From an uncultured Gammaproteobacteria bacterium (GTDB taxonomy: Bacteria; Patescibacteriota; Microgenomatia; Levybacterales; GWA1-39-11): DNA of 64,000 nt. Shown one piece after another: positions 36,536-63,178 of the stretch. The notes beneath the pieces were generated by a model that was not told where the DNA came from, made no database searches, and saw only the letters and a list, made by a program, of their open reading frames with translations. How positions within the stretch are numbered: the stretch's first letter is position 1; every line of letters begins with the position of its first letter. The position numbers were made by a program, and so were the translations under genes. Location: positions 338,630 through 402,629 of the forward strand of contig CAYPEN010000002.1 in assembly GCA_964409875.1 (NCBI GenBank). Direction: 5' to 3'.

Positions 36536-36985
36536 TTAGAGGCCTGTCGTTGCTTGGTTAAGCTCAGTTCCGTCAGTGGCCGGATCGGTGATGGGGGCAT
36601 TCAATATTTCATCATCAGTAGGCGTTACTGTAGGAACAGCTGTTGGTGTAACAACTGTCTTAACGGTAGTTGCCGGTTTTGTGTACGATGGAGCCTGTGT
36701 AGTTTTTGAACTCTGAGTAATTATGATGTAATAAAGAGCCCCAAGAACGACGATAAGCACTACCAATATTGCAGCAACAAGAAGCAGTCCACTATTCTTT
36801 TTGCCTTGTGGGGCTACAACCGGCGCCTGCACGGTGGGGGAGCCCGGAGGTGTTGGTGGCATCTGGGGAGTAACCATGTTTGCAGCGGGGGGTGGAGTAG
36901 GCGTTGCACCGGCTACAGGCGGAGGAGTGGTAGCTCCTGCTGGCGGAGGTGTTGTTGGTTGGTTGTTTAGTGTTTTTTCATCCAT
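36536..36985 (-). CDS. Single-pass membrane protein with Pro-rich N-terminus and Thr/Pro-rich C-terminal region
   Basis: 149 aa. PPPAGATTPPPVAGATPTPPP, then a TM helix (LLLVAAILVVLIVVLGALYYIII), then a Thr/Val/Pro-rich tail. Same architecture as 12671-13213. Confidence 0.5.
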   Translation of the reverse strand: MDEKTLNNQPTTPPPAGATTPPPVAGATPTPPPAANMVTPQMPPTPPGSPTVQAPVVAPQGKKNSGLLLVAAILVVLIVVLGALYYIIITQSSKTTQAPSYTKPATTVKTVVTPTAVPTVTPTDDEILNAPITDPATDGTELNQATTGL

Positions 36986-36986
36986 A

Positions 36987-37733
36987 TTATGGGGTAGGCG
37001 TTGTTGTAGCGGTTATTGTTGGTGATGTTGTTACTCCTATGAGTTGTCCCAAATCTTTGTGAGCTTTAACAACTGCCTGTTGGGAAGCTACGACTTTTGC
37101 CCGTACCGCCTTAATATCGCTCATAAATTGTTGGATGGTAGTTGCTGCTGCACTTCTTAGGGCGGTTTCGGTTGTAATATTCATTGTATACTCTTTTGCC
37201 GCTTGGGTTGATACTGCAGTTTTGGCTGCATCTATTGCAGTCTGAGCTGCTGTTATATCCGATGCAAGAGTCGTAGTGTTTTTTCCTTCGGATTTAAGAG
37301 TTGCCTCTTTGGTGGAAATCTTTCCAAGTATTGTAGTGAGTCTTTCGAGCCGTTCGCTCATTTCAGTTGTTCTGTTCTTATTAATTGTTGCGATACGCGT
37401 ATCGAGGTTAGAGATAATTTCTTGCTTCTTTGCATCCTTTATCGCGGCCATTTTTGTTTTGAATTCTTCGCGTGCTTGCTGCATTTTCTCTTTCATCGCA
37501 TCCCTTGCTTCAGTCTTTGCTTCCTTCGCCTCTTCCCGCAGAGTTGCAACCGGACGCTTGAGAGGTAGTTTTGAATTGACGGCAGGTGTGGTAGTAGCGG
37601 TCTCTGTAGTAGTGGAATCGGTTGCCTCAGTTGCTGTTACGGTATTGGTAGTCCTTGTAGTTTCTTGAGCAAGGGCAAAAGCCGGGGAAACCAGAAAAAC
37701 AAAAGAAGACACAAGGATGAGCAGTTTTTTCAC
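36987..37733 (-). CDS. Secreted Thr-rich coiled-coil protein
   Basis: Signal peptide (MKKLLILVSSFVFLVSPAFALA), a Thr-rich N-terminal stretch, a long charged helical region, and a Thr/Pro-rich C-terminus. Confidence 0.5.
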   Translation of the reverse strand: MKKLLILVSSFVFLVSPAFALAQETTRTTNTVTATEATDSTTTETATTTPAVNSKLPLKRPVATLREEAKEAKTEARDAMKEKMQQAREEFKTKMAAIKDAKKQEIISNLDTRIATINKNRTTEMSERLERLTTILGKISTKEATLKSEGKNTTTLASDITAAQTAIDAAKTAVSTQAAKEYTMNITTETALRSAAATTIQQFMSDIKAVRAKVVASQQAVVKAHKDLGQLIGVTTSPTITATTTPTP

Positions 37734-51295: not shown

Positions 51296-51324
51296 TTGAC
51301 ACAGTTTGTACCATTTGCTAATAT
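51296..51324 (+). promoter_or_regulatory. Sigma70-like promoter TTGACA-17-TAATAT
   Basis: TTGACA at 51296-51301, a 17-nt spacer, TAATAT at 51319-51324. Followed immediately by a GC hairpin plus U-run at 51340-51364. Confidence 0.5.
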
Positions 51325-51563
51325 CCCTGAATATAACTGCCCCGTACATCGGGGTATTTTTTTTACAAAAAATGGCAGTACATTCATCATCTATTGCAAA
51401 TTCAAAAAAATTAGAGCTTACCATAACTCTTCCGAGCTTTAATCTTTCTGAAGCAATTAAAAGATTAAAATCTTCGGCAACGGTTTTATTTTCAAACATA
51501 TACAATCCTATAAATAAAGGGGTAGCAAATGCTAGTGAACTTGCCTCCTCAAGGGCCGAAAGA

Positions 51564-52166
51564 ATGAATTTCAAAAAAATGAGAAACGTTAAATTTGATA
51601 AAAAATATCTAAAAATTATCGTACCGGTAATAGTTGGAGTAGTTGTTTTAGGAATATTAGTAAGTCTTATCCGTTCCCTTCCTGATGCAAAGAGTCAGCC
51701 CGCAACTGCTACCAATAATGTTGCCGCTCCTGACGCACTTGCAACTATCAATTTGGATAAGAAATTCTCTTTTCCATTAAAAGACGATAAAGGAACTGTA
51801 GTTGGTAACTTTGATTACGTTATCCAATCAGCAGCGCTTCAGAAGCAAATAATTGTCCAGGGACAAAGGGCAACGGCTGTTAACGGGAGGGTGTTTCTTA
51901 TCCTTAACCTTAAAATTACTAACAATTTGAAGAAGACCATTCAATTGAATACACGTGACTACATAAGACTTATTACAGCAAGCGATGCGAATGAACAATT
52001 GGCACCTGACATCCACAACGATCCAGTTGAAGTTCAGGCAATATCAACAAAATTCACCAGAGTTGGAGTGGCAATTGATGAGAAGGACGCAAGAAAGACG
52101 GTGAAACTTAAGGTTGGAGAAATTGACGGGACAAAGCAAAACATTGACCTTAACTTTAAGTACTAA
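51564..52166 (+). CDS. Membrane-anchored hypothetical protein with a DUF4352-like beta domain
   Basis: Start chosen at the MNFKKM ATG, downstream of the promoter at 51296; the ORF-track start 51306 lies inside the promoter. TM helix IIVPVIVGVVVLGILVSLI, then a beta-rich domain. Confidence 0.4.
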   Translation: MNFKKMRNVKFDKKYLKIIVPVIVGVVVLGILVSLIRSLPDAKSQPATATNNVAAPDALATINLDKKFSFPLKDDKGTVVGNFDYVIQSAALQKQIIVQGQRATAVNGRVFLILNLKITNNLKKTIQLNTRDYIRLITASDANEQLAPDIHNDPVEVQAISTKFTRVGVAIDEKDARKTVKLKVGEIDGTKQNIDLNFKY

Positions 52167-52221: not shown

Positions 52222-52479
52222 ATGGCAAAGACGAATCAAATTCCGAATCATCTACTTTCAGAAATTACAGCAGCCTTGGAGAGCGTCAAATACGGAAGCA
52301 TAGAAATATTTATCCAGAACAAAGTCATCACCCAAATAACCGTTAGAAATATCCACAAAACGAGTGTTGAGATAGAAAAGGAAGAGGGAAGTGTGTCAAC
52401 GCACGTGCAAAGCATAAGTCACTCTCATAGTTCGCAAACACAAACAACGATACAGAGAAATTCTGTTAAGATCCGGTAA
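52222..52479 (+). CDS. YezD-like small protein (DUF2292)
   Basis: SVKYGSIEIFIQNKVITQITVRNIHKTSVE matches the remembered DUF2292 core (...YGSV.I.IQDGKVVQIE..EKIR). Confidence 0.45.
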   Translation: MAKTNQIPNHLLSEITAALESVKYGSIEIFIQNKVITQITVRNIHKTSVEIEKEEGSVSTHVQSISHSHSSQTQTTIQRNSVKIR

Positions 52480-52534
52480 TTTTAGAGTTTGGTAGGAGTT
52501 GTGAAATAAACGGCTATATCAAGCAATTTAGGTC

Positions 52535-52563
52535 TTGACAGCAATATTTCTTTAGTATATAAG
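52535..52563 (+). promoter_or_regulatory. Sigma70-like promoter for the first repetitive surface-protein gene
   Basis: TTGACA at 52535-52540. TATATA at 52556-52561 (15-nt spacer), or TATAAG at 52558-52563 (17-nt spacer). Confidence 0.45.
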
Positions 52564-52618
52564 TTAGTTACTTTGTAAGAGTCCGTTTCATAGAAGACGG
52601 ACAAAGCTGACCGCAAAC

Positions 52619-52670
52619 GGAGGCTTCTTCACACAAGACATAATTGTGTGCGGAAGTCTCCGTTTTTTTT
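52619..52670 (+). terminator. Strong intrinsic-terminator-like hairpin inside the 5' leader of the 52791 gene
   Basis: GGAGGCUUC (52619-52627) pairs GAAGUCUCC (52653-52661), with an inner CACACA/UGUGUG stem, followed by an 8-U run (52663-52670). Confidence 0.55.
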
Positions 52671-52790
52671 GTTTCTTGGGGCTACCGGAAATAAAACTAG
52701 GCGGGACCAGCCTCGACTTTCGAGTCTAGGCGGGGAAACGAAGTGTTCTCTTAATAGAGAAATCTTTCTAACGAAGGAGGTGAAATAAAT

Positions 52791-54074
52791 ATGACAAATT
52801 TCAAAAAGCAAATTTTCTCAGTTCTCGCAGCAGGAAGTCTACTCGTAAGCGTAGCAACTCCAGCACTCGCGGAAACTACAATCACAATCTCTGGAAACGG
52901 CGCTGGATCTAATAATGCAGCTACTGTTACTCAAACTAACACAACAACCGTTTCTCAGAACAATACAGCAAACGTCACTAACAACGTTACCTCAAACGCA
53001 AGCACAGGTGGTAATGATGCTAACTTCAACACTGGAGGGAATGTAACAGTTCAAACCGGTGCTGCTACATCAAATACAACTGTAGCCAACAACCTTAACA
53101 GCAATGCTGCACAGGTTAGCGGATGCAATTGTGGTTCTGACACAAACGTTAAAATCGATGGAAACGGAGCTTTGAGCCTCAATCAAGTTAAATTAACTGA
53201 TGTTAATGCAACGACTTTGGGACAAAACAACGTTGCCAACGTTACAAATAACGTTACTTCAGATGCTAAAACCGGCGGAAATGATGCTAACCTCAACACC
53301 GGAGGGACAACAACTGTTGTTACCGGAGCGGCTAGCTCAACCTCAAATGTTAAGACTACAGCAAATGCAAATGTTGCAAATGTTGGAGGATCAGCACTTG
53401 CAGGAGCAACCGGACATTCTGCATCTTTCGTAATTGAAGGAAATGGCGCAGGCAGCAATAATTGGATTACTGCAGGCCTCACCAATTCTAACTACGTCTC
53501 TCAAGGCAACACAGCTAACATTACAAATAATGTTGACTCCGATGCTAAGACCGGCGGAAACGATGCAAAATTCAATACCGGAGGCGATGTTGTAATCGCA
53601 ACCGGAATGGCTACGGCTAAAGCAATGGTAGATAACATGGTTAACTTTAATTCAGCTAACCTCGACTGCGGTTGCGTTACCGATGTCACCGCAAAGATCG
53701 TTGGAAACGGTGCAAATCCTCTCCTCGGTGGAGAGCATGTGTATCCAGGGTTCATCGATCCTAACGGAATCGTTTTGACACTTGCTAATGCTAACACTTT
53801 GGGTCAGGGTAACGTTTCCAATCTTGGAAACAATGTTGATGCTGACGCATTTACCGGATGGAACGATGCAAATCTTAACACCGGATCTGTAACTATGGCG
53901 AATGATCCAGCTATTGTAACTGGACCTGCAACCAACGTTACTGGTGTAAGCAATTCTGGCAACGTCAACGTTGCTGGAAGCACTCCAGTTGTACTTCCCC
54001 TTCCAGGTGGAAATACACTCGGATTCTCTTTCAGCATTCAAGCTTTGATGGCATACTTCGGTTTGTCAATGTAA
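52791..54074 (+). CDS. Secreted repetitive Asn/Thr/Gly-rich surface protein, 4 x ~90-aa modules (paralogue family member 1)
   Basis: Strong SD AAGGAGGTG 7 nt upstream. Signal peptide MTNFKKQIFSVLAAGSLLVSVATPALA. Four repeats of the pattern I-x-GNGA-x-S...SQNNTANVTNNVTS-x-A-x-TGGNDA-x-NTGG...TG, with paired Cys (CNCG / CGCV) between modules. Confidence 0.7.
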   Translation: MTNFKKQIFSVLAAGSLLVSVATPALAETTITISGNGAGSNNAATVTQTNTTTVSQNNTANVTNNVTSNASTGGNDANFNTGGNVTVQTGAATSNTTVANNLNSNAAQVSGCNCGSDTNVKIDGNGALSLNQVKLTDVNATTLGQNNVANVTNNVTSDAKTGGNDANLNTGGTTTVVTGAASSTSNVKTTANANVANVGGSALAGATGHSASFVIEGNGAGSNNWITAGLTNSNYVSQGNTANITNNVDSDAKTGGNDAKFNTGGDVVIATGMATAKAMVDNMVNFNSANLDCGCVTDVTAKIVGNGANPLLGGEHVYPGFIDPNGIVLTLANANTLGQGNVSNLGNNVDADAFTGWNDANLNTGSVTMANDPAIVTGPATNVTGVSNSGNVNVAGSTPVVLPLPGGNTLGFSFSIQALMAYFGLSM

Positions 54075-54182
54075 GTTTGATATAGGAACGCGTAGGGTGC
54101 TTTTGTTAGCACTTCGACAGAAACACCCTACAAGTTCCAACAAAAATTAACAAATAGATTTAAGAGGTAAGAATTAAGATTT

Positions 54183-56453
54183 ATGAATATAAGAAAAATT
54201 AAACAATTACTGTCCCTATCACTCATACTTGTTATATTTGTCGGAAAATTAGCAGTTCCTGCAGCAGTCCTTGCAGAGGACGCGCCAACACCTCCTGTTC
54301 CTCCAGAAGCTCCAACTGCTCCAACTGCACCCGCAGCTCCAACTGCACCTGAAGCTCCAACGCCTCCAAGTCAACCTACGCCACCAAGCCAACCGACTCC
54401 TCCCAGTCAGCCAACACCGCCTACTGCTCCAACTGCGCCCTCAGCACCAACACCGCCAACGGCTCCAACTGCACCAACAGCCCCCACGGGCCCAAACGCG
54501 TCATCGCCTACAGCCACCAACAACTCACAGCAGGGTACGAGCTCAGTTGGAAATGTTGGGGATACTGCTATTAATACCGGAAGCGCAACCAACGATTCAA
54601 CGCTTGTCACAACCGGCAACACTAATGCTTCAACTTCCGGGTGTAACACATGTAGCGGTGGAAGCGCAACGGTTGGAAATTCTTCTAACGGCGCAGGCTC
54701 TAATAACAGCGCAACGGCAAATAACACTAACTCGGCAACCACATCCCAGGCAAACAGCGCAAATGTTGGCAACAATCTAACCCAAGGGTCAAATACGGGA
54801 CACAATAACGCTTCATTAAATGTGGGAGACTCATCAATCACAACGGGAGATTCCAACGTCTCCGGAACGGTTATAACGGCCGTTAACACCAATGTTGACG
54901 GTGTAGCGGTTGCGACATTTAATGTAGCGGATAACCACACAGGAGATATCGTTCTTTCTCCCGGGAACGCATCAAGTACATGCACCAATGGATGTGGTGC
55001 GACCAATCAAACGGCAAATTCGAATAATGGAGCAAATTCTACTAATACAGCCAACAATAATACCACTAACACTTCAACAACCGGTCAGACAAATGACGCA
55101 GTCATTGGAAGCACTCTTAATCTGAACGCAAATTCAGGTGATAATGCGACAAGTTTTAATACCGGTGGAGACTCTTCGGTCACGACTGGGAATGCAAATG
55201 TTTCGGCAAACGTACTAACCATGGCTAACAACAATGTAGCCGGTAATGTCCTCTATAATGTCGTTAATGTATATGGAAATTTGGTAGGAGATATCATCCT
55301 TCCGCAATCAACCATCGATGCGCTTTTGTGCAATAGCTGCAACGGCTCGCAATCGACTGCAAATACCGGGAATGGAGACGGTTCAAAGAACACCGCAAAT
55401 GGCAACACGACAAACACTAATACAACAACGCAAGCAAACACTGCGCAAATTGATAACAACCTCAACATAAGTGGAACGACCGGTGACAATAGTTCAAGTT
55501 ACAATACGGACGGCAATTCGGGTGTCACCACAGGTTCCTCAAATGTTGTTGCAAATGTCCTCAATGTTGCCAATACAAATATCAATGGCGGGACATGGTG
55601 GTTGGTTATCGTCAACCAAGCAGGAAAATGGATCGGTAAAATCGTCGGCTCACCTGACGGTGCAACCATGGCAGGAAGTGCCGGCACAGAATTTGAAGTA
55701 GATCCTAATACGGGAGAAGTAACAGCAGTTAGCAACTCAGGTAATGGAACAGGGTCGACAAATACAGCAAATTCCAACACGACTAACACAAATACTTTGA
55801 CTCAAACCAACAATGCCAAGATTGAGAACAATGTCAATCTTTCAGCCAACACTGGTGGGAATAAAGCAAGTTATAACACGGGCGGAAATTCAAATATTAA
55901 GACCGGTGACGCTCAGGTTATTGCCAACATCGTTAATTTTGTCAACAACAATATCTCAGGCGGCGGCAAGCTAGTTGTAACGGTTGTCAATGTCTTCGGA
56001 AGTTGGCTTGGGGACTTTGTTGCCCCCGGACAACAAAAACAGAATCACAACACCGCACAAAACAACAATAATAATAATGGAGGCAATAACAACCAAAACA
56101 ATGCAAATAACACCAATAACAATAACGGTTCATCTCTTGTGTCTGGCGCTACTGGCAATAACACGAAGACAAATGCTGCTTCTACAACCACCGTCACCAA
56201 CTCCGGCAACAACAATTTCTTCGGAACCGGCAGTGTAAAGGGTACATCGACCGGCGGCGGAACCAACTCTGATGCTACTGTTGCAAAAAGCGTAGGGCAA
56301 GACGGTTCAGCAGCAGTAGCACATAAGACAATCAACATTAATCTCGCATGGATATTGCTCATGCTCCCAATGGCAGTTATGGGTATGCTTATTAAGAAGT
56401 CATTCGTGCCGGTAAAGACATTGGCATTGAGAGGAATTCACTTGTTCTTATAA
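54183..56453 (+). CDS. Secreted repetitive surface protein with Pro-rich (PSQPTPP)n N-terminal linker and C-terminal hydrophobic segment (family member 2)
   Basis: Signal peptide, then a ~75-aa Pro/Ala/Thr linker with 21-bp tandem repeats. Seven or more modules follow of the type NSGDNATSFNTGGDSSVTTGNANVSANVLT. A poly-Asn tract and a C-terminal TM-like segment WILLMLPMAVMGMLIKK follow. Confidence 0.7.
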   Translation: MNIRKIKQLLSLSLILVIFVGKLAVPAAVLAEDAPTPPVPPEAPTAPTAPAAPTAPEAPTPPSQPTPPSQPTPPSQPTPPTAPTAPSAPTPPTAPTAPTAPTGPNASSPTATNNSQQGTSSVGNVGDTAINTGSATNDSTLVTTGNTNASTSGCNTCSGGSATVGNSSNGAGSNNSATANNTNSATTSQANSANVGNNLTQGSNTGHNNASLNVGDSSITTGDSNVSGTVITAVNTNVDGVAVATFNVADNHTGDIVLSPGNASSTCTNGCGATNQTANSNNGANSTNTANNNTTNTSTTGQTNDAVIGSTLNLNANSGDNATSFNTGGDSSVTTGNANVSANVLTMANNNVAGNVLYNVVNVYGNLVGDIILPQSTIDALLCNSCNGSQSTANTGNGDGSKNTANGNTTNTNTTTQANTAQIDNNLNISGTTGDNSSSYNTDGNSGVTTGSSNVVANVLNVANTNINGGTWWLVIVNQAGKWIGKIVGSPDGATMAGSAGTEFEVDPNTGEVTAVSNSGNGTGSTNTANSNTTNTNTLTQTNNAKIENNVNLSANTGGNKASYNTGGNSNIKTGDAQVIANIVNFVNNNISGGGKLVVTVVNVFGSWLGDFVAPGQQKQNHNTAQNNNNNNGGNNNQNNANNTNNNNGSSLVSGATGNNTKTNAASTTTVTNSGNNNFFGTGSVKGTSTGGGTNSDATVAKSVGQDGSAAVAHKTININLAWILLMLPMAVMGMLIKKSFVPVKTLALRGIHLFL

Positions 56454-56516
56454 TTCTATGTCAGTAGTAACACACAATATTGAAATTAAAAAGCGAATAT
56501 TAACTGTTAGCTTATT

Positions 56517-57638
56517 ATGATCAAAAAGGCGATTATTTTTATAATCTGCCTACTTTTAAATTTCGGAATAACTTCAAAAGTTAAGGCAGAAGAGATTGTA
56601 ATTTCCGGTAACGGAAGTGATTCTTCAAATCAAGTTCAAGTACAGAGCTCAAATACAACCACGGTTTCTCAAAACAATACTGCAAACGTTGACAACAACG
56701 TGAATTCAACGGCTAATTCAGGTAATAATTCAACAACAAGCAACAATGGAGATTCTACAATAAAGACAGGAGACACTTCCTCAACAACAACTGTCGCCAA
56801 CCAGAATATCAATACGAATTCGGCTAACCTCTCTTCATGTGGCTGTGATACATCATCAACTACAAAGATTTCCGGTAACGGGGCAGGTTCAACAAATACC
56901 ATTACATCAACCGACACAACTACTACATTTATATCTCAGAACAATACCGCAATAATTTCCAATAATATACACGTTAACGGAAATACTGGGAATAACACTG
57001 CTTCATACAATAATGGTTCCTCGACTATCATGACCGGTAGCATTTATGCATCAACGGATGTAAATAACAAAAATATTAACAATAGTCAGTACAAAGGAAC
57101 GGTATCCACCAACAACGATAATTCAATCATTATTGCAGGAAATGGAGAAGGCTCTTTCAATAACGCAATAGTTGCAGACAATACAAGCGTTATTATCACT
57201 AACAATAACACCGCTGACATAACAAATAACGTAGAGCACGACCTAAATACTGGTGGTAACAAAACATTGGGAAATGTGGGGGATTCGGTTATTATCACTG
57301 GCGGAATAGTAAGTAAGGTAAAAATTAATAACGAGAATATCAACAGTAATTTGACCGAGGTATCATGCAACTGCCCCAGCAACAATCCGGGAGGAGGAGA
57401 GAATAACGGGGGAGGAAACCCACCGTCGACAAATCCCGGAAGTTCAACTGTTCAGGGTGCAAGTGGAAGTTCCTCAGGCTCAAGTAATGGTTCATCAGGG
57501 CCTGCAGCCGGAAATACGCTCCCTGCAACCGGTGTAACCATCCCATACATGCTTATTGCAACGCTTATTCTCTTCTTCATGTTCCTTTCAGGGCTGTACT
57601 TGCGTTTCAATGCTGCCAACGCACCACCTACCGTCTAA
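56517..57638 (+). CDS. LPXTG-anchored repetitive surface protein (family member 3)
   Basis: Signal peptide. Three ~90-aa modules (ISGNGSDSSNQVQVQSSNTTTVSQNNTANVDNNVNS... with CGCD / CNCP). C-terminal sorting signal LPATG, a hydrophobic stretch and LRFN. Confidence 0.75.
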   Translation: MIKKAIIFIICLLLNFGITSKVKAEEIVISGNGSDSSNQVQVQSSNTTTVSQNNTANVDNNVNSTANSGNNSTTSNNGDSTIKTGDTSSTTTVANQNINTNSANLSSCGCDTSSTTKISGNGAGSTNTITSTDTTTTFISQNNTAIISNNIHVNGNTGNNTASYNNGSSTIMTGSIYASTDVNNKNINNSQYKGTVSTNNDNSIIIAGNGEGSFNNAIVADNTSVIITNNNTADITNNVEHDLNTGGNKTLGNVGDSVIITGGIVSKVKINNENINSNLTEVSCNCPSNNPGGGENNGGGNPPSTNPGSSTVQGASGSSSGSSNGSSGPAAGNTLPATGVTIPYMLIATLILFFMFLSGLYLRFNAANAPPTV

Positions 57639-57658
57639 CCGGTAGCTCTTTTAACCAT

Positions 57659-57679
57659 TAACCCCGAAAGGGGTTTTTT
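57659..57679 (+). terminator. Rho-independent terminator after the LPXTG protein gene
   Basis: CCCC-GAAA-GGGG hairpin followed by TTTTTT. Confidence 0.6.
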
Positions 57680-57707
57680 GATGGTTTGAAGGTGGTAGAA
57701 TACGGGT

Positions 57708-58265
57708 ATGAGCAGAAAGGTGCAAATATGGTTTGGTAATATATTAATCGCAGTTTCCCTTTTAGGGTTGCTGTTAATTTATTACCCGCTTGCGAAAGAA
57801 TTTCTTTTTCCTCCACATTTTAGCGCTTCTCAAAAAGCAAAGATCGAGTTTTCAGTGGAAATTCCTTCAATTAACGTTTTTTCGCCGGTCATAGCCAATG
57901 TTGACCCTTTTAACCCCAATGAATATCTTGAGAAGCTGAAAAACGGGGTTGCGCATGCAAAGGGAACAAGTTTGCCGGGCCAAAAGGGAACGATATACCT
58001 ATTTGCTCATTCCTCAGACGTTCCATGGAGAATAACACGCTACAACACGGCTTTTTTCAAGCTGCCTTTTGTGAAAAAGGGGGATAGAATAATTATCAGA
58101 AAAGACGGGAAAGTGTATAACTATAAAGTCACTGATGAGAAAACGGTGTGGCCAAATGAAGTTAGTTATTTAAAAAATTCGCAAGGGAATATATTAATTC
58201 TTCAAACGTGCGTGCCGGTGGGGACGTCTTTGCAGCGTCTACTGGTTTTTGCAAAACCATTTTGA
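57708..58265 (+). CDS. Sortase (transpeptidase), small single-TM form
   Basis: N-terminal TM anchor. Catalytic-type His in YLFAHS, and the TLxTC-like active-site Cys in ILILQTCVP. 185 aa, immediately downstream of the LPATG substrate gene. Confidence 0.7.
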   Translation: MSRKVQIWFGNILIAVSLLGLLLIYYPLAKEFLFPPHFSASQKAKIEFSVEIPSINVFSPVIANVDPFNPNEYLEKLKNGVAHAKGTSLPGQKGTIYLFAHSSDVPWRITRYNTAFFKLPFVKKGDRIIIRKDGKVYNYKVTDEKTVWPNEVSYLKNSQGNILILQTCVPVGTSLQRLLVFAKPF

Positions 58266-58285
58266 ACAATTGTATTTTTCCCAAA

Positions 58286-58316
58286 AACAAACCCCCTCGC
58301 GAGGGAGGGGGTTTGA
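58286..58316. terminator. Bidirectional GC-rich hairpin terminator between convergent sortase and surface-protein genes
   Basis: An A-run, then CCCCCTCGCGAGGGAGGGGG, then a T-run. Confidence 0.55.
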
Positions 58317-58340
58317 AAATTCTTGCAAGAAAATTTTTAG

Positions 58341-58955
58341 TTATGGTGTTTGTGTGTTGGTATTTGATGAACCGCCTACCATTACACTCACGCCAGTTGT
58401 AGCTGTTCCAGATGTAATGCTGCTTCCAGATCCAACATTGAAGCTAGAGCTATTTCCTCCTGTATCTGAGCTTGCATTTACCTGAGTCACTGCAACAGTT
58501 TCATTGCCTTGTTCAACAGTGTTAGTGCTGCCGTTGACAACTACTATCTTGTTGTAGGAGAAAGCTCCAGTACCCGAGATCCCGGCTGTATTTGTAGAGT
58601 TATTAGCTCCACATCCGCAGGAAGAACCAGTATTTGTATTGGTGCTTCCGCCAACAGTTACTCCTACTGAAGTTGTAGCTGTTCCGGAAGTTACTGTGTT
58701 AGTTCCGCCTACATTAAAACTGGACTTATTTCCGCCTGTATTGCTTCCGGCATTAACACCGGTAATAGCAGTTGTTCCATTCACTTGTGTTACGGAAGTG
58801 CTTGAAAGATTAACAACCTTAATCTTGTTGTAGGAGAAAGCTCCTGTTCCAGATATAGCAACAGTATTTGTTGCGGCAAATGATGCCGGGGCTACTACAG
58901 CCGCCACCATTGAACCGAGTACTATTGCTGATGTCAATTTTTGTTTGATATTCAT
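58341..58955 (-). CDS. Secreted repetitive surface protein, 2 diverged modules (family member 4)
   Basis: Start taken at MNIKQKLTSAIVLGSMVAAVVAPASFA (signal peptide). Two modules of the type ISGTGAFSYNKI.VVN.S.T.V.Q.N.T.A.T.VNA.S.TGGN.SSFNVG, separated by CGCG. Confidence 0.65.
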   Translation of the reverse strand: MNIKQKLTSAIVLGSMVAAVVAPASFAATNTVAISGTGAFSYNKIKVVNLSSTSVTQVNGTTAITGVNAGSNTGGNKSSFNVGGTNTVTSGTATTSVGVTVGGSTNTNTGSSCGCGANNSTNTAGISGTGAFSYNKIVVVNGSTNTVEQGNETVAVTQVNASSDTGGNSSSFNVGSGSSITSGTATTGVSVMVGGSSNTNTQTP

Positions 58956-59268
58956 ATATTTCACCTCCTCTCCTTGAAAAAAGCCTGCCAAAACGCGATT
59001 TACGTTTTGAAAGCACAAAAAAACCCTTCGCGACTGCTTAGGGTTGATATGCGCAATTTGTAACTCTCATGGGCAGGTTCGATTTGGTAAATTCCAGAAT
59101 AAATTCAGGGGCAAGAAGAATTTAGATTAGAGCTATTATATGAATAGCCAGTCCATATCTGTCAATACGGACAAAATGTATATTTGTGACATTAACGATA
59201 TCAATTGTAAGAACTGATATTTTTGTATCGCAATTGATGTATTTAGTGTTCTTTTTGAGGCTTTTACC

Positions 59269-61879: not shown

Positions 61880-63178
61880 ATGAATCCGACAATTACGCAG
61901 GAAATCAATGCATTAAGGGATTTTCTCGACCAAAGTAACGAATTGGGCATCATAATAGGTCTTCATCAGAATCTTGATACTGTATCCTCTGCCCTTGCAC
62001 TGTATCTCTCGCTTACCCAGGCAGGTAAAAAAGTGCAAATCATCTCAAAAAAACAACCGACCGTTGAAATCTCAAATTTAGTTGGTGTTGATAAAATTAA
62101 AGACGGTTTTGTTGGCAATACCGGAAAACTTATCGTTTCTCTTCCATATGTAAAAGGTGAAGTCGAGAAAGTGCTTTTTACTGAGGCTCCAAATACCATC
62201 AATTTTCATTTGACTGCAGCACCAGACAGAAGCATCACCCCATTTGATGTAAATGATGTAAAGCTCATATGGGAAGGCGGCGCGCCAGAGGCTGTAATTA
62301 CTTTTGGGGTGGGGACACCTGATGAATTGAATGGAATAATCGACACCAATAGCTCAAAGATAGTCAATATCGACAATTATCCGGGGAATACACGCTTTGG
62401 CGACGTAGTACTTGTCGATGAAAGCTTTTCATCTCTTTCTGAAATTGTAGGTAAAGTTCTCAAAGACCTACAATTTCCAATGGATATGGATATTGCGCAA
62501 AACATTTTAGATGGGGTTTTGTTCGCTACCAGAAATTTCACAAAACAAAATACTTCTCCACTTGCATTTGAGGCAGCTTCTGCGGCTATGTACCATGGAG
62601 CACAGAGAAAATTGGAGGAACAACAAGGAAGGCGGGAACAAGGTATGAATCCGCAACGCTCACAACAGAACCAGGATAGGAATAGGGGAGAGCAACAAAG
62701 GAATCCCCAACATGGAAGACAGCGTGGTGCGTCCTTCAGCTCTCAAAGGGGTTCGACTTTTGATTCTCAAAGGAGTTCGACCTTTGATTCTCAAAGGGTG
62801 AATGATACCGATTTTCCGGCAATGCATATGCAGAATAACCGAGGACAAAATCAACAACAAGAGAGTAGACGGGATAACCAGATGAGAGCGCCTCAGCCTC
62901 AAAACCCTCCACGCATGAGTCAGCAATTCGCAGGAAATGAGCCTCAGAGAACCCAAGATATCCGTGAGAAGATTATGAGGGAAACACGCCCGTCTTATGA
63001 GCCTCAAGATAGAGTCGAGGATGCCCAATTAGTAAATGAGCCTAGTATGCAGAGTCAGCAACCGGTTGAGGATACAAGAATGCCTCAAGAGCCATCATTT
63101 GAGAACCAAAACAATGAAGAGATTCCAGATGATTGGCTGATGCCCAAAGTCTTCAAAAGCTCCAAGAACAATAATTAG
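61880..63178 (+). CDS. DHH-family (NrnA-like) phosphoesterase homologue with degenerate DHH motif and Gln/Arg-rich repetitive C-terminal tail
   Basis: GLHQNLDTVSSALAL resembles H-x-NPDGDALGS of DHH proteins but lacks the Asp residues. A DHHA1-like middle region follows. The last ~180 aa are Q/R/N/S-rich, with a 27-bp tandem repeat (QRGSTFDSQRSSTFDSQR). Confidence 0.4.
   Translation: MNPTITQEINALRDFLDQSNELGIIIGLHQNLDTVSSALALYLSLTQAGKKVQIISKKQPTVEISNLVGVDKIKDGFVGNTGKLIVSLPYVKGEVEKVLFTEAPNTINFHLTAAPDRSITPFDVNDVKLIWEGGAPEAVITFGVGTPDELNGIIDTNSSKIVNIDNYPGNTRFGDVVLVDESFSSLSEIVGKVLKDLQFPMDMDIAQNILDGVLFATRNFTKQNTSPLAFEAASAAMYHGAQRKLEEQQGRREQGMNPQRSQQNQDRNRGEQQRNPQHGRQRGASFSSQRGSTFDSQRSSTFDSQRVNDTDFPAMHMQNNRGQNQQQESRRDNQMRAPQPQNPPRMSQQFAGNEPQRTQDIREKIMRETRPSYEPQDRVEDAQLVNEPSMQSQQPVEDTRMPQEPSFENQNNEEIPDDWLMPKVFKSSKNNN

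Follow-up and report, generated by a model that had tools for sequence, protein, structure and literature searches.

Our analysis of a 64,000-nucleotide stretch of contig CAYPEN010000002.1 (hereafter the window) has revealed a surface-protein system that is real, conserved and as yet undescribed, and that belongs to a major class of the candidate phyla radiation (CPR). It comprises four paralogous secreted proteins, which we call m1 to m4, together with a sortase, a membrane protein (u1), a small DUF2292 protein and a conserved leader RNA. We read this as a conserved cell-envelope locus of Microgenomates-type CPR that would make a multi-component surface structure from one undescribed beta-solenoid-like repeat, a reading whose chances of being right or wrong we hold to be about equal. 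An earlier note, made from the letters of the window, had described a four-gene family. Four paralogues are indeed present, but the unit is larger and also takes in u1, DUF2292 and the leader RNA.

The genes for m1 (52791-54074, 427 amino acids), m2 (54183-56453, 756 amino acids) and m3 (56517-57638, 373 amino acids) lie on the plus strand and are followed there by the sortase gene (57708-58265, 185 amino acids). The gene for m4 (58341-58955, 204 amino acids) is found on the minus strand and starts at the ATG at 58955. These four open reading frames were confirmed as first drawn, and each of them begins with a Sec-type signal peptide, read from the sequence as a Lys/Arg n-region, a hydrophobic core and an AxA-type site (PALA/ETT, AVLA/EDA, KVKA/EEI and ASFA/ATN for m1 to m4 in order). 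The composition of the proteins is biased, with 12-18% Asn, 13-17% Thr and 10-15% Gly, and Asn, Thr, Gly, Ser and Ala together make up about 60% of the residues. The paralogy claimed for them holds in composition-corrected BLASTP, with E-values of 2e-39 for m1 and m3, 3e-19 for m1 and m4, 3e-11 for m3 and m4 and 9e-9 for m1 and m2.

The common element of these proteins is a module of about 89 amino acids, with the consensus xxxxISGNGAGSxN...Q.N.A...NNV...ANTGGN.A..NTGG....I.TG.A.....V.N..N.N. A hidden Markov model (HMM) built from nine modules finds four copies in m1, three in m3 and two in m4, with domain E-values of 1e-25 to 1e-36, as well as four weaker copies (1e-10 to 1e-17) and an N-terminal half copy in m2. 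In all frames of the window, no copies were found outside m1-m4. The module length of roughly 90 amino acids given in the earlier note was right, as the autocorrelation of the m1-family profile peaks at 89-93 residues (z 4.4-5.0), but the copy number of two to seven or more was not. Within the module the sub-periods are weak and irregular (2, 8, 17, 22 and 39 residues by profile autocorrelation). Tandem Repeats Finder, when run on the DNA, did not detect the modules as tandem repeats, and we therefore take them to be old repeats. What it does detect is a Pro/Thr-rich tandem-repeat stalk in m2 (54309-54495, periods of 9, 18 and 27 nucleotides). Both the Pro-rich stalk and the Asn-rich tract previously seen in this protein are present. 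The m2 modules are also longer than those of the other paralogues and have extra hydrophobic inserts.

According to our sequence searches the module belongs to no named family, as had been supposed: m1-m4 have no match among the Pfam and NCBIfam families or the PDB sequences. Pfam likewise finds no domain in the divergent module-like proteins, nor in ten long members of the family except for DUF11 in one. The GGxGxD calcium-binding nonapeptides of RTX or beta-roll repeats (HemolysinCabind) were looked for in m1-m4 and not found. Searching clusters at 50% identity, the module profile retrieves 3,116 cluster representatives with an E-value limit of 1e-3, and 2,110 when this is tightened to 1e-10. 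These proteins fall into length classes of about 410-430 amino acids (as m1), about 500 (with five modules) and about 750 (as m2), with some proteins reaching 1,183 amino acids, and the source names of the homologues are all 'hypothetical protein'. In the literature on CPR surface proteins, sortases and DUF2292 we found no description of the module family or of the leader RNA. The module defines a large domain family without a Pfam or NCBIfam entry or a solved relative.

Cysteines are found in m1-m4 exclusively in close pairs. The C-x-C pairs described before do exist, but they do not separate all consecutive modules: in m1, m3 and m4 they come after the odd-numbered modules (1 and 3) only, at amino acids 112/114 (CNC) and 293/295 (CGC) of m1, 108/110 and 284/286 of m3 and 113/115 (CGC) of m4. 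The idea of a disulfide between consecutive modules was therefore wrong in its positions. The pairs of m2 are CxxC, CxxxC and CxxC. Across 80 other genomes, a pair follows modules 1 and 3 in 79 of 79 m1 and 45-46 of 46 m3 orthologues, and module 1 in all 37 m4 orthologues. Modules 2 and 3 of m1 are instead joined by a Gly/Ala hinge without Cys. The placement after odd modules implies that the structural unit is a double module of about 180 amino acids with the Cys pair at its centre, of which m1 has two, m4 one and m3 one and a half. Because the spacing differs among orthologues (CC, CxC, CxxC or CxxxC) and no other Cys is conserved, the pairs may best be seen either as a local staple or as a bridge between molecules, made by a disulfide or a metal.

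Anchors are seen in m3 and m2, and they are of different kinds. The C-terminus of m3 reads GNT-LPATG-VTIPYMLIATLILFFMFLSGLYL-RFNAANAPPTV, where LPATG (amino acids 335-339, positions 57519-57533) is preceded by a G/S/P/N-rich linker and followed by 23 hydrophobic residues and then R. These are the features of an LPXTG sorting signal, namely a C-terminal LPxTG, a hydrophobic helix and a positive tail, and attachment to the cell wall is predicted. The observation that m3 alone ends in this way, and that the next gene is a sortase with LQTC, proved correct, and a scan for sorting signals gave m3 as the sole credible LPxTG-type tail in the window. The other match of the scan, a Gly/Val-rich APATG tail on a 96-amino-acid reading-frame fragment (36735-37022), was taken as spurious. 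Most m3 orthologues keep LP[AVIMED]TG within a conserved tail of LPxTG, transmembrane helix and YLR, and none of the 325 m3 homologues is annotated. In m2 the C-terminus consists of a conserved INLAW, a transmembrane helix (amino acids 723-737) and KKSFVPVKTLALRGIHLFL, a basic cytoplasmic tail. This arrangement is kept in the orthologues, and m2 is therefore taken to be membrane-anchored. The m1 tail is conserved and hydrophobic (FSFxxAALxAFFGM) without basic residues and without an anchor motif, and m4 also has no anchor, with no feature seen at its C-terminus.

The sortase matches PF04203 with 88.4 bits (cut-off 26.6, E 4e-25) and TIGR01076 with 61.3 bits (cut-off 39.35). In an alignment with the class C sortase 8t28, its Cys168 (in LQTC) and Arg177 fall on catalytic residues, His101 is found within FAHSS, and an N-terminal hydrophobic helix forms the membrane anchor. 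None of the class-specific NCBIfam models reaches its cut-off, the best being the class C model NF033745 (64.7 bits against 160), and the lid is absent, as the transmembrane helix runs straight to strand beta1 (IPSI region). We treat the enzyme as unclassified, minimal and putatively of the housekeeping type. Like the housekeeping sortase-substrate pairs of Gram positive bacteria (class A, D or E), it is a small membrane-anchored His/Cys/Arg sortase encoded beside an LPxTG substrate, and m3 and its sortase make up a defined sortase/substrate pair in CPR. Unlike those pairs, the sortase stays below every class-specific cut-off, and the substrate tail is not LPxTG in Gottesman-, Ames- and Woese-bacteria. 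In these lineages the protein at the m3 position is shorter, with one module, and ends in VLGL[SA]xT[AS][GS], a transmembrane helix and basic residues. A sortase gene is still adjacent to such tails in loci L033, L034, L038, L040, L041, L043, L044, L047, L051, L056, L061, L062 and L083 of our scan, and VLGL[SA]xT[AS][GS] may be a variant sortase recognition motif.

To describe the distribution of the locus we used the m1 alignment as query and kept one genome per GTDB species, which resulted in 80 loci. The search for the module in other CPR genomes, as the earlier note had proposed, thereby found it in 80 species-level Microgenomates loci. The named loci all belong to Microgenomates-group CPR (Levy-, Roizman-, Woese-, Gottesman-, Ames-, Davies- and Chisholm-bacteria, together with one 'Nealsonbacteria'), so that the assumption of a CPR origin is supported by named relatives among Levybacteria and other Microgenomates. 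Many third-party metagenome-assembled genome records with this CPR-specific locus (among L009-L088) are titled 'uncultured Gammaproteobacteria bacterium', which is probably a placeholder or a mislabel. The gene order across loci is u1, DUF2292, m1, m2, m3, sortase and m4, the last on the minus strand. Counting the loci with room for each component, u1 is found directly upstream of m1 in 76 of 76 and DUF2292 upstream of m1 in 63 of 76, while m2 follows m1 in 72 of 72. The sortase comes after m2 in 51 of 62 loci and an m3-like gene stands beside it in 44 of 62, which supports the earlier view that enzyme and LPxTG paralogue are linked. For m4, a position after the sortase is seen in 30 of 50. 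There are also extra sortase genes upstream of u1 (L040, L041, L051, L054, L066 and L078; in L054 with a one-module protein), from which it follows that a sortase/substrate pair can occupy either side of the u1-m1-m2 core.

The number of modules is constant for each paralogue: m1 has four in all 80 loci, m3 has three and m4 has two. We found more than 500 full-length m1 homologues with 50-67% identity and invariant module and Cys positions, and across the Microgenomates class m1 identity ranges from 40 to 67%. The 64 m4 orthologues are 196-216 amino acids long, with a nearly invariant Cys pair. Fixed module number, fixed order and moderate to high identity throughout the class lead us to expect a structural assembly of defined geometry and not variable adhesins. 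The flanks of the locus, an efflux pump upstream and nusA-infB downstream, are common to close relatives only.

The AlphaFold2 (AF2) model of m1, based on 42 orthologues, is all-beta, with a mean predicted local distance difference test score (pLDDT) of 75 and a predicted TM-score of 0.67. The modules have pLDDT values of 80-93 and the hinge between modules 2 and 3 a value of 50. The m4 model was excluded from the fold search owing to its low confidence. The figures from structure comparison were 8.9 for SufD/SufB, 8.2 for UpaB, 7.6 for Pontibacter CsgA, 6.4 for FHA, 6.3 for RsaA, 5.5-5.7 for RTX domains, 5.4 each for the E. coli CsgA fibril and L. reuteri SRRP and 5.3 for PfbA. Foldseek found nothing significant in the PDB, where the top two entries were the curli CsgA and FapC (E 0.03-0.05, TM-score 0.05-0.19), and no significant match in BFVD. 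The predicted model suggests that the module probably folds as a beta-solenoid whose rungs are irregular and span about 17-22 residues, without a close solved relative. The earlier guess of an Asn-ladder solenoid has become the best-supported candidate for the fold class.

A large part of the diversity of bacteria belongs to the CPR, or Patescibacteria, whose symbiotic lifestyle plays out at the cell surface. Apart from type IV pili, we know of almost no CPR envelope proteins that have been identified. The present locus offers candidate building blocks of the envelope, as a set whose architecture is fixed throughout the class. Its conservation in the Microgenomates branch makes it likely that the locus supplies a core part of the cell surface there. 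We suggest that m1-m4 would all be exported via Sec. The C-terminal transmembrane helix of m2 would hold it in the membrane, from which it could reach outward on its Asn-rich linker, and the neighbouring sortase would cleave m3 at LPATG and attach it to the wall via the G/S/P/N-rich linker. The unanchored m1, with two double modules, would probably be the major product. Together with m4, with one double module and also unanchored, it could bind the anchored paralogues through the homologous modules, the Cys pairs or both. The product might then be a coat or fibrils of defined stoichiometry, for which u1, DUF2292 and the leader RNA would be accessory or regulatory parts.

Several observations weigh against this proposal. 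The AF2 model of m4, from 59 homologues, is poor (pLDDT 50), with a strand pattern as in m1. Neither Pfam nor NCBIfam finds an SLH, CWB2 or other known wall-binding domain in m1-m4. Strict invariance is limited to u1-m1-m2, as m4 is not beside the sortase in 20 of 50 loci and m3 and the sortase are missing in 18 of 62. Moreover, we infer that the four proteins associate, and likewise their geometry (a layer or a fibre), the Cys-pair chemistry and the levels of expression. In a more far-reaching version, the main layer or fibres of the Microgenomates (OP11) envelope would come from this locus, as a hetero-oligomeric assembly of the four beta-solenoid paralogues tied by disulfide or metal at the Cys-pair junctions, anchored in the membrane and, via the sortase, on the wall, and gated by DUF2292 and the leader RNA. 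This version seems to us unlikely. That m1-m4 might form the dominant cell-surface layer and might serve in host attachment, as the earlier note supposed, is a hypothesis. Cryo-electron tomography of ultra-small groundwater cells including OP11, by Luef et al. in 2015, reportedly revealed a distinct surface layer whose composition is not known, and the m1-m4 locus is a candidate source of it.

The question arises whether the four proteins could be independent host-attachment adhesins, each binding a host surface alone and using its repeats only as a stalk. They are secreted or anchored, rich in repeats and from a presumed epibiont lineage, and the LPXTG proteins closest to them in structure, L. 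reuteri SRRP (5nxk) and S. pneumoniae PfbA (3zpp/4mr0), are solenoid adhesins. Adhesin stalks, however, tend to evolve rapidly and to differ in the number of their repeats, whereas here the number of modules is fixed for each paralogue throughout the class at an m1 identity of 40-67%. Furthermore, two of the four proteins have no anchor, and the locus is syntenic and lies among core genes such as nusA and infB. We consider the adhesin explanation unlikely; the features of the locus point to a putative structural assembly with a housekeeping role and not to a variable adhesin specific to a host. The LPXTG beta-solenoid adhesins of Firmicutes also have no sequence similarity to m1-m4. Compared with SRRP and PfbA, the bodies here are discrete modules of about 89 amino acids paired around a Cys pair, four paralogues of fixed architecture occur together, two of them unanchored and one anchored by a transmembrane helix, and the locus is conserved in the class along with u1, DUF2292 and the leader RNA. 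In kind, the locus is a variant of the sortase-associated beta-solenoid surface proteins. What is distinctive is the Cys-paired double module, the set of four paralogues of fixed form, among which two anchor types occur, and the cassette of DUF2292 and leader RNA.

Another possibility is a curli-like functional amyloid, in which m1 fibres would polymerise end-to-end, nucleated on m3 and m2 as CsgA is on CsgB, to form a matrix for biofilm or attachment. The alternating Asn/Gln/Thr-rich patterns of the modules would fit this. As in curli (CsgA/CsgB) and Fap, there are paralogous secreted and cell-bound subunits with imperfect Asn/Gln/Gly-rich repeats and beta-solenoids, here predicted ones. We nevertheless find an amyloid unlikely. 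The structural matches to CsgA and FapC are not significant, Pfam gives no match to the curlin repeat (Curlin_rpt, PF07012) in m1-m4 at E <= 1, and a comparison by hhalign of the module profile with E. coli CsgA, whose sequence was entered by hand, returns a probability of 0.1%. The sub-repeat period inside the module is irregular (8, 17, 22 and 39 residues), and the m1 monomer is confidently folded on its own in AF2. There is also no Fap sequence match, no secretion partners of the CsgEFG type are evident, and the modules are four times as long as a curlin repeat, with irregular rungs. Finally, a sortase-type envelope, as in the present case, implies a monoderm wall.

The class C affinities of the sortase, whose nearest solved relatives and best NCBIfam model are of that class, could suggest a pilus in which m3 subunits are linked head-to-tail as class C sortases do with pilins. 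We reject this as highly improbable, given the score far below the class C cut-off, the missing lid, the presence of LPxTG on only one of four proteins and a fold which is not the immunoglobulin-like fold of pilins. That the genes are non-expressed low-complexity reading frames or an annotation artefact, one of the outcomes named beforehand as fatal to the proposal and suggested by the biased composition, is rejected as next to impossible in view of hundreds of full-length orthologues in which the ends, the signal peptides, the anchors and the Cys pairs are all conserved, a family of no fewer than 3,100 clusters, conserved synteny and strong Shine-Dalgarno sites and promoters.

The leader RNA is found on the plus strand at 52596-52685, between DUF2292 and m1, and consists of an 18-mer, a long terminator-like hairpin and a U-run. 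The 18-mer, GCUGACCGCAAACGGAGG (GCTGACCGCAAACGGAGG) at 52606-52623, occurs once in the window and is exact in 48 of 88 loci, even where m1 identity is just about 43%. The hairpin has 22-24 base pairs by RNAalifold, with an invariant base (AAACGGAGGC/GCCUCCGUUU) and an upper stem that varies with compensation. In the alignment 93.9% of cells are paired, and covariation is 0.409, against 0.20 in shuffled alignments (0 of 500 reach the observed value) and 0.10-0.15 in slid controls. A covariance model gives 78.5 bits for the leader as its sole true match in the window, and in most of the 80 loci it detects the leader ahead of m1. None of 4,227 Rfam covariance models matches over 52596-52685 at E <= 1, and targets in the window complementary to the single-stranded 9-mer of the leader are matched at chance level only. 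Upstream of the leader we read a promoter-like TTGACA-N17-TATATA from the sequence (52534-52563, plus strand). It is kept in close relatives and absent in some lineages, where the 18-mer comes 14 nucleotides after the DUF2292 stop. In most lineages there is a second motif in the m1 5' untranslated region, GAAGTG(C) with a variable hairpin, which in the window lies at about 52740-52760, between the leader terminator and the Shine-Dalgarno sequence.

Metagenome sequences extend this association. A stricter set required a 19-mer (the 18-mer followed by C) and then a run of at least 5 T within 130 nucleotides as a proxy for hairpin and U-run, and 79 of the 121 instances of the 18-mer pass this filter. 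Where enough downstream sequence is available, the leader is followed by a module protein in 57 of 65 instances; the other genes 3' of it encode secreted proteins, subtilisin-like, TasA-like and divergent module-like ones. DUF2292 is directly upstream of the leader in 61 of 71 instances. The DUF2292 gene of the window (52222-52479, plus strand) encodes a small, cytoplasmic, YezD-like protein of 85 amino acids (PF10055, 30.8 bits against a cut-off of 22). Among metagenome loci L089-L208, DUF2292 and the leader are also found ahead of non-module genes, TasA-like in L145 and L206, as well as in L142 and L194. This conserved pairing suggests that DUF2292 and the leader RNA may form a cassette, a new mark of genes for secreted structural proteins in Microgenomates-type CPR. 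We read the leader as a putative cis-acting attenuator for such genes, possibly working with DUF2292; alternatively, it might act as a small RNA. If the attenuator reading is true, DUF2292 and the leader would gate expression also ahead of TasA-like, subtilisin-like and divergent module proteins in CPR. Processive-antitermination leaders of surface-structure operons are known from RfaH/ops and LoaP. Like these, the leader combines a short invariant sequence with an intrinsic-terminator hairpin, ahead of genes for secreted or surface components. Unlike in ops, the 18-mer has an unrelated sequence, the constant partner gene is DUF2292 and no NusG paralogue is seen at the locus.

Further expression signals are spread over the locus. 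Strong Shine-Dalgarno sequences precede m1 and m4 (AAGGAGGTG and GGAGGTG, respectively). After m1 there is a stem-loop without a U-run (54085-54138, plus strand; -31.8 kcal/mol, z -5.4 against shuffles), which may be a 3' stabiliser raising m1 relative to m2. Immediately 5' of m3 there is another promoter-like site (11 of 12 matches), which overlaps with the 3' end of m2. Contrary to the earlier description, terminators do not flank the m3/sortase pair: a terminator-like hairpin with U6 lies between the two genes (57660-57681, plus strand), a bidirectional intrinsic terminator follows the sortase, and none precedes m3. The latter terminator (58288-58315) has an 11-base-pair GC-rich stem with T-runs on both strands and separates the convergent sortase and m4 genes. 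On the minus strand, m4 has a promoter-like TTGACA-N19-TATAAT, read from the sequence, and a leader of about 170 nucleotides (58956-59163). This leader contains two hairpin and U-run elements before GGAGGTG, attenuator-like in shape and unrelated in sequence to the m1 leader. We infer that these signals would fit abundant structural subunits and a less abundant enzyme, because of the strong Shine-Dalgarno sites of m1 and m4, the stabilising hairpin after m1 and the attenuating hairpin before the sortase.

The gene directly upstream of DUF2292 encodes u1 (51372-52166, plus strand), whose orthologues align from the ATG at 51372, with a possible alternative start at a TTG at 51306. It is a membrane protein with a cytoplasmic N-terminal part, a single transmembrane helix and an extracellular domain of about 150 amino acids. 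Pfam gives just faint DUF4352 matches for this ectodomain (E 0.05-0.09, below the cut-off), and PDB sequence searches with u1 and the DUF2292 protein had no match. In a Levybacteria metagenome-assembled genome (L004, 16165-19113), genes with HemolysinCabind, LTD and Peptidase_M73 (TasA/camelysin-like) domains come after the locus and appear to be a further gene set for putative surface or fibre proteins. In the window itself, 3' of infB, an open reading frame of 432 amino acids (61880-63178, plus strand) has a long Gln/Arg/Asn-rich tail with repeated QRGSTFDSQR-like units.

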